This document shows, in pieces, positions 8,849 to 9,719 of a stretch of 17,112 nucleotides of DNA; position 1 is the stretch's first letter, and each line of letters starts with the position of its first letter. The stretch is from a virus (taxonomy: Duplodnaviria; Heunggongvirae; Uroviricota; Caudoviricetes), in the IMG/VR virus record IMGVR_UViG_2541047699_000018, one strand, 5' to 3'. The position numbers and the translations under genes are program-made. Below the pieces are notes generated by a model. The model saw only the letters and a program-made list of their open reading frames with translations. It was not told where the DNA came from and did no database searches.

Positions 8849-8850
8849 TC

Positions 8851-8940
8851 TTTAGTCTCACACCAGATACTTTGTTATCCAACGATGTTAACCGCGGGAA
8901 TCCAAAGTATCAAGAAATTCTGTTACTTTAGTATCAACAG
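8851..8940. promoter_or_regulatory. OR-like operator/promoter region between the divergent cro-side operon and cI
   Basis: Four copies of an (A/T)AGTATCA-type motif in both orientations: 8851-8860 (variant), 8866-8874 (reverse), 8903-8913, 8927-8938. Confidence 0.5.
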
Positions 8941-8959
8941 CCATGAGAGGAGAAGAAAA

Positions 8960-9616
8960 ATGAAGTCTTTAGGTGAACGTCTCATCAACGCACGGCAAAA
9001 AGCTGGGTTAACACAAGATGCGTTGGCTAAAAAAGCTGGGATCACCAGAGTTGCAATCAGTAAAGCCGAGCAAGGCCTTACAAAAAGTTTCAACGGTGAC
9101 ACCCTTTTTAAAGTTGCAGCTGCACTGCGGTGTTCACCGCAGTGGCTTCAGAACGGAGATGAAAAAGATAAGCATTGGGAAAATAATGTTAAGAGCTGCC
9201 CACAGAGAGACACAGCACACTCTTACCCTGTAATTAACTGGGTTCAGGCAGGATTATTCGCAACTTCTGGTGATGACTACAACATGTATGATCAGGATAA
9301 TTGGAGGCATTCTGTAAAATACGCTGGTGAGAGGGGGTTCTGGCTGGAAGTGCACGGAGACTCAATGACTTCGCCCGTAGGAATAACATTTCCTGAAGGA
9401 ATGTCGATCCTTGTCAACCCAGATAAAGAAGTTTTTTCAGGGTGTTACGTCATCGCCAGAAAAAAATCCACCAATGAAGCAACATTCAAAAAATATATTT
9501 CTGACATGGGAAAGGCGTTTCTAAAGCCCCTTAATCCACAATATCCAATCATAGAAATGGACAATGATTGCGAAATAGTAGGTGTTGTGGTTGATGCCAG
9601 GTGGGATATTTTCTGA
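8960..9616 (+). CDS. CI-type phage repressor (HTH-XRE plus S24 LexA-like peptidase domain)
   Basis: 218 aa from ATG 8960 (SD aggaga). HTH LTQDALAKKAGITRVAISKAEQG; Ala-Gly cleavage site (VQAGLF); catalytic GDSM and a downstream Lys (ARKKS). Confidence 0.85.
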   Translation: MKSLGERLINARQKAGLTQDALAKKAGITRVAISKAEQGLTKSFNGDTLFKVAAALRCSPQWLQNGDEKDKHWENNVKSCPQRDTAHSYPVINWVQAGLFATSGDDYNMYDQDNWRHSVKYAGERGFWLEVHGDSMTSPVGITFPEGMSILVNPDKEVFSGCYVIARKKSTNEATFKKYISDMGKAFLKPLNPQYPIIEMDNDCEIVGVVVDARWDIF

Positions 9617-9641
9617 CCAGACACAAAACACAAAAAGAAAC

Positions 9642-9718
9642 CAAAGTATCAAAAATCACTTGCCACACCTTGATACCTTAGTTACCATAAAACAAAGTTC
9701 GTAACTGAGGTATCATCT
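9642..9718 (+). promoter_or_regulatory. OL/pL-like operator-promoter region downstream of cI
   Basis: The same GTATCA motif recurs at 9645-9651, 9671-9677 (reverse) and 9709-9715. Candidate promoter ttgcca (9660-9665), 17-bp spacer, taccat (9683-9688). Confidence 0.4.
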
Positions 9719-9719
9719 C

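Follow-up and report, generated by a model that had tools for sequence, protein, structure and literature searches.

Within a 17,112-bp stretch of phage DNA (hereafter the window), a gene for a cI repressor of 218 aa (8960–9616, plus strand) is bordered on both sides by repeats of a GTATCA-type motif. This raises the question of whether the repeats are the operators of a lambda-like immunity region and, if so, whether it is cI that reads them. The window comes from a phiP27-like lambdoid prophage of E. coli: positions 8400–10106 are 94% identical to the Stx2e phage phiP27 (NC_003356) and ~85–86% identical to several Stx1a and Stx2a phages. The interval 8849–9719, in which a search of Rfam gave no RNA family, matches E. 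coli chromosomal prophages at 100% identity and is present in 204 of 5,426 complete E. coli genomes; in strain ZH063 the same region lies inside a P27-like prophage integrated beside yecN/cmoA. In addition to phiP27 and the Stx1a and Stx2a phages, the immunity type occurs in prophages of at least seven other enterobacterial genera.

On one side of cI lies a cro-like gene of 75 aa (8621–8848, minus strand), the first of its operon, behind which the minus strand carries two genes of the Rha/Ant type and three for replication proteins: an initiator, a loader resembling DnaC and a helicase resembling DnaB. With the replication genes downstream of cro, the minus strand here corresponds to the PR (‘rightward’) operon in lambdoid phages. 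One of the ORFs in this operon, of 282 aa with Ash and Rha parts (6960–7808), has gathering-level Rfam matches in its 5′ part, the Pfam Phage_ASH region: C4 antisense RNA (RF01695, 7566–7653, minus strand, 75 bits) and isrK (RF01394, 7675–7751, minus strand, 62 bits). These look like an antisense-RNA/antirepressor module of the P1/P7 immI type, lying within the PR operon and adjoining the cI/cro module.

On the other side, the first gene of the PL operon encodes an HTH_3 (DicA-like) protein of 167 aa (9720–10223, plus strand), which is a target of control and stands outside the operator set. Its length varies, from 138 aa in phiP27 and ZH063 to 215–216 aa in the Stx phages. There is a mosaic joint in the 3′ end of the gene (~9933–10106): homology to phiP27 stops at ~10106, and phage PhiR49_2 is 100% identical from 9933 on. 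In some other genera (clearly Raoultella and Phytobacter), the N-terminal ~60 aa of the first PL gene resemble the 53–71-aa ORFs found at the same position; in the window and in Morganella an HTH_3 (DicA-like) domain comes after that N-terminal part, in what looks like a domain fusion. At its 3′ end the 167-aa gene shares ~110 bp with an 86-aa ORF on the other strand (phrog_6104; 10111–10371, minus strand), and one or other of them may be annotated at too great a length.

The original prediction counted four motif copies between the cro-like ORF and cI and three between cI and the HTH gene, a tally that holds if degenerate copies are included. Exact AGTATCAA occurs three times in the 17,112 bp (at 8906, 8930 and 9645), each time within one of the two intergenic regions flanking cI; further GTATCA/TGATAC copies begin at 9671 (minus strand) and 9710 (plus strand), and a GATAC at 8866 is followed by a degenerate TTATC at 8875. 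Since the last two are the halves of a single site, the four copies on the cro side resolve into three operators, and the operator count is three plus three. The 9-mer AAGTATCAA is likewise a real repeated motif, but it is the strong half-site plus flank of a 14-bp site rather than the operator itself. Here we observed five matches to the 14-mer GWWWC-N4-GTATC, against 0.15 expected and with none of 200 shuffles reaching five; all five lie in the two intergenic regions and each is among the six sites described below. GTATC occurs six times in the 214 bp of these two regions, compared with 34 times in the 16.9 kb elsewhere, and a repeat search pairs the sites independently (pairs D2, I1, I2, I4, I5, I6 and I12). 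In the window as a whole, GTATC/GATAC is over-represented (40 copies, 21 expected, 0 of 200 shuffles reaching 40), and the ~34 copies left after removal of the operators may reflect codon usage.

The motif very probably marks six operators, three on each side of cI, of a phiP27-type lambdoid immunity module. As read from the sequence, the predicted operator is a 14-bp imperfect palindrome, G-W-W-A-C-N4-GTATC, or 16 bp when the conserved flanking T/A is included, with one strong half (GTATC-A) and one weaker half (GWAAC, GAATC or TTATC). The operators of lambda and 434 likewise have one weaker half. We scored the sites with an 18-mer weight matrix, for which six loci from outside E. coli supplied 26 sites. 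On the cro side, OR-a (8866–8879, GATACTTTGTTATC, score 10.9) covers ~−1 to +13 relative to the PR start, OR-b (8898–8911, GAATCCAAAGTATC, 23.3) overlaps the PR −35 element, and OR-c (8922–8935, GTTACTTTAGTATC, 11.2), nearest cI, is a candidate autoregulatory (OR3-like) site. OR-a and OR-c score only ~11, and in the window the right half of OR-a is degenerate (TTATC); alignment of the intergenic DNA with that of phiP27 and two Stx phages showed the counterpart of OR-a in the Stx2a phage LC567842 to be a perfect palindrome, GATACTTAAGTATC. On the other side, OL-a (9637–9650, GAAACCAAAGTATC, 26.8, the top score of the window) lies upstream of the PL −35 element at ~−58 to −45, OL-b (9672–9685, GATACCTTAGTTAC, 21.5) spans the PL spacer and runs into the start of the −10 element, and OL-c (9701–9714, GTAACTGAGGTATC, 14.3) covers ~+7 to +20. 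OL-c is 93% complementary to OL-b and overlaps the Shine-Dalgarno sequence GAGG of the 167-aa HTH gene; it was found only in the E. coli phages, Photorhabdus, Xenorhabdus and Morganella. Centre-to-centre spacings are 32 and 24 bp in OR and 35 and 29 bp in OL.

Three of the sites thus overlap a PR-like promoter and three a PL-like promoter, both identified by promoter scan. PR consists of a −35 hexamer TTGATA (8913–8908, minus strand), made up of the strong half of OR-b and its flank, and, after a 17-bp spacer, a −10 hexamer TAACAT (8890–8885, minus strand). The −10 follows the pattern TAnnnT in the same alignment columns in every genus, and the −35 hexamer, being the strong half-site with its flank, does not vary among genera. 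The PL-like promoter, TTGCCA-17-TACCAT (9660–9688, plus strand), points away from cI, and the TTG of its −35 element and its −10 element are conserved in all relatives. With the domains of cI, the three-plus-three sites and the two promoters all in place, the lambda-like OR/OL arrangement originally proposed is well supported at the level of sequence.

Across the window, the six best matches to the matrix are exactly the six sites (9635–9652, 8896–8913, 9670–9687, 9699–9716, 8920–8937 and 8864–8881), with scores from 26.8 to 10.9; the next match elsewhere scores 7.3, and shuffled sequence yields a mean of 0.84 matches of at least 10. The same six are the top six in 40.9 kb of the ZH063 E. coli chromosome that contains the region. 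The motif is therefore commoner beside cI than elsewhere, as it should be if the prediction is right. In homologous immunity regions the motif recurs: related loci in Phytobacter, Yersinia, Pantoea, Raoultella, Photorhabdus, Xenorhabdus and Morganella, as well as in viral contigs, all carry the 14-mers at the same places in intergenic DNA that has otherwise diverged. Among 38 distinct OR sequences, ranging from the E. coli phages to these seven genera, mean column entropy is 0.27 bit in the operators and 1.23 bit in the spacers (Mann–Whitney p = 1.5e-11, for sequences that are related and so not fully independent). OR-a stands out as a conserved block in this set, the OR-b block GAatCcAAAGTATCAA is nearly invariant, and the 32- and 24-bp spacings are conserved in a gapless alignment. 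The OL alignment exhibits the same pattern of conservation.

Is cI the protein that reads these sites? The gene product carries an HTH_3 domain (Pfam, 1.7e-14) and a Peptidase_S24 domain (3.2e-22). Its C-terminal domain matches the lambda cI structure 3bdn (E = 9e-34), while its N-terminal domain matches 434 Cro (1e-8), P22 c2 (1.4e-8) and the 434 repressor (1.9e-4). The residues for self-cleavage (site A97-G98, catalytic S135 and K177) are conserved in 31 homologues. The recognition helix spans T29–E37 (TRVAISKAE), and cI homologues retain TRVAISKAE(Q/L)G unchanged down to ~53% overall identity; in our own reading of the alignment, R30, V31 and K35 presumably occupy the positions of Q28, Q29 and Q33, which contact bases in the 434 repressor. 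The helix and the operators travel together. Ten loci with the helix [T/S]RVAISKAE have 49 matrix matches (4.9 per 400-bp flank), whereas 72 other loci, nearly all of which share only the C-terminal domain, have seven in total, two of these in a locus (L011) with the same helix. Relatives with altered helices have three-plus-three sites of their own, altered in sequence but placed alike with respect to the promoters: SRMAISKIE in Serratia sp. Ag1 goes with TAAAC-N4-GTTTA, SRVTISKIE in E. coli P0051 with GAAAC-CTAG-ATTTC (GAAAC-N4-ATTTC), and NRVTVTGWE in three Proteus loci with TGTAGGA..TCCTACA. Of the computational evidence that the motif is read by cI, this covariation of helix and site is the strongest.

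The covariation also bears on the other proteins that might occupy the sites. The 75-aa ORF in the Cro position, transcribed divergently from cI, is predicted to adopt an all-alpha Cro fold, and it is conceivable, if improbable, that the sites are read mainly or only by this protein or by another phage regulator (the 167-aa HTH protein or a Rha-like protein) and not by cI. The Cro-like gene accompanies the sites in every locus, so that co-occurrence alone does not separate cI from Cro, and the Cro sequence differs slightly at the loci with variant operators (KTNAAIG/SSQ against GSNAEIG/TGQ). However, changes in the cI helix match changes in the operator one for one, while the putative Cro helix SQxVGKW is almost constant. 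To our knowledge, cI and Cro share operators in all lambdoid switches that have been studied; by analogy, binding by Cro would add to binding by cI rather than replace it. We rejected the downstream HTH protein as the binder: five genera have only an ORF of 53–71 aa in its place, too short for an HTH_3 domain, and yet the OL sites persist.

Nor is it at all probable that the conserved blocks are simply promoter elements (the TTGATA −35 and TAnnnT −10) or AT-rich curved DNA. The TTGATA(C) at OR-b does coincide with the PR −35 element, and OR-c holds the −10-like hexamers TACTTT and TAGTAT; but the 14-mer is also present at OR-a, OL-a and OL-c, places that require no hexamer; a change of repressor helix brings a change of motif without moving the promoters; and the sites have dyad symmetry, with a perfect palindrome at OR-a in locus L002 and perfectly symmetric GATAC/GTATC half-sites at OL-a in L126. 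Host proteins such as IHF or LexA are just as hard to credit as the intended readers. The IHF core is WATCAA-N4-TTR, which TATCAA resembles, and LexA recognizes CTGT...ACAG, for which a CTGT-N13-ACAG can be found around OR-c (8920–8940). Across genera, however, the bases 3′ of GTATCAA vary where IHF needs TTR, and the CTGT/ACAG pair, with a spacing of 13 where 8 would be expected, is missing in relatives. We rejected both readings on the grounds of these unconserved flanking bases and the wrong spacing; moreover, a site for a host factor would not covary with the helix of a phage repressor.

If the sites are operators of cI, then their positions, conservation and promoter overlap, together with the covariation, suggest how the switch might work. 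Dimers of cI would bind through the helix T29-R-V-A-I-S-K-A-E37, with R30, V31 and K35 making base contacts by analogy with the 434 repressor residues Q28, Q29 and Q33. A dimer at OR-b would cover the −35 element of the leftward-pointing PR and one at OR-a its start, which would silence cro together with the genes of the Rha/Ant type and those for replication, while OR-c, over the −10 element of the best candidate cI promoter, could provide negative autoregulation at high repressor levels. Cooperative occupancy would be possible at PL, where OL-b sits between the −35 and −10 elements, OL-a on the upstream side and OL-c beyond the start. Dimerization, and probably cooperativity, would come from the lambda-like C-terminal domain; binding, its order and its cooperativity are inferred here. 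With its Ala-Gly/Ser/Lys self-cleavage apparatus, the repressor would be expected to clear the operators upon SOS induction, and the Cro-fold protein would be expected at the same sites during lytic growth.

The cI promoter, PRM, can be placed only tentatively. Our candidate, of low confidence, is an extended −10-like sequence, TGnTACTTT (8921–8929, plus strand), for which we found no good −35 element. All 38 unique OR sequences have T8921, which adjoins the OR-c 14-mer on its outside, whereas the base before each of the other operators varies. Three candidates were examined by eye and none was convincing: TAGTAT (8929–8934) with GTATCA as its −35 element; TTGTAT-17-TAGAAT, which is present in some genera only; and TGnTACTTT itself, even though it is the sole universally conserved option. 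Either candidate −10 element puts the centre of OR-b near −32 to −37, which is not the geometry of activation in lambda.

The stretch between cI and OL invites a further, more speculative suggestion. OL-a begins 20 bp past the cI stop codon, and no terminator was found between the two (9617–9636), nor at this place in other E. coli phages; in contrast, the relatives examined from other genera (L004–L008, L043 and L087) all have a GC-rich hairpin and T-run between cI and OL. With the terminator absent, cI transcripts might read into the PL operon. It is possible, though we regard it as doubtful, that the E. coli members have lost the terminator and that cI transcription in the lysogen enters the three OL sites. 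Bound repressor would there act as a roadblock or insulator, or else cI and the 167-aa HTH protein would be expressed together, the latter serving as a second lysogenic function of the rex kind; to this reading also belongs the idea that the cI promoter is the extended −10 element in OR-c and that OR-b stands too near it to activate in the manner of lambda. A cI promoter buried in OR-c would, if real, mean a switch without positive autoregulation.

How new is the specificity? A tblastn search with cI residues 1–68 against 50,697 phage records found no characterized phage with a near-identical DNA-binding domain. Matches above 90% were confined to phiP27 and uncharacterized Stx1a/Stx2a phages, the next best being a DicA-like protein of phiES15 (46%), with 434 and P22 at ~42–44%. 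The literature, as searched with the phiP27 genome paper (PMC127862) outside its scope, yielded no operator, binding or expression study of a phiP27-type repressor. Judged by its sequence, the module thus looks like an ordinary lambda-style switch with a DNA specificity that does not match the known immunity types (lambda, 434, 21, P22, HK022, 933W, H-19B, N15 and others). Conceptually it adds nothing to the paradigm of lambda, 434 and P22. What it offers, for an immunity type without experimental description, is a predicted operator map and recognition code, the latter pairing TRVAISKAE with GATAC. The map predicts which of the carrier phages are homoimmune, and the natural specificity variants in Proteus, Serratia sp. 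Ag1 and E. coli form a series for examining co-evolution of HTH repressors and their operators.

The comparison with lambda is closest in layout. In both phages cro is transcribed from PR away from three operators, with cI in the other direction, followed by another three operators and a promoter pointing away from cI; the C-terminal domain of cI is clearly homologous, with its Ala-Gly, Ser and Lys; and each operator has a consensus and a non-consensus half. The differences are in the parts. Operators here are 14 bp (GATAC-N4-GTATC) rather than 17 bp (TATCACCGC...), their spacings are 32/24 bp in OR and 35/29 bp in OL, and the N-terminal domain of the repressor is of the 434/P22 HTH_3 type rather than the lambda type. 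The window lacks rex genes and has no terminator separating cI from OL, an HTH protein is encoded at the head of the PL operon where lambda has N, and the predicted fold of Cro is all-alpha where that of lambda Cro is mixed.

With 434 and P22 c2 the module shares the family of the DNA-binding domain (five-helix HTH_3), 14-bp operators whose outer bases are conserved around a variable, A/T-rich centre, and three OR plus three OL sites. N-terminal identity to them is nevertheless only ~42–44%, and the C-terminal domain is nearer that of lambda. The half-site GATAC differs from the ACAA of 434 (operator ACAA-N6-TTGT), as do, in our own reading of the alignment, the contact positions (R30, V31 and K35 here, Q28, Q29 and Q33 in 434).

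Among Stx phages, 933W (three OR and two OL sites) and H-19B (four OR sites) also have lambdoid switches, in which the number of operators varies (PMC8065619). Their repressors have other specificities, and their operators were mapped experimentally, whereas those described here are predicted from sequence. The nearest named relative is the L11/L12 region of phiP27 (NC_003356), in which all six sites are conserved and where the repressor is annotated only as ‘putative lambda repressor’, with no operator annotation found. Besides its shorter HTH protein (138 aa), phiP27 differs in having an extra plus-strand gene, L13 (3326–3997 in locus L001), between cro (L12) and the Rha-like L14; in the window, cro and the Rha-like gene overlap directly (8621–8624), without L13 between them.
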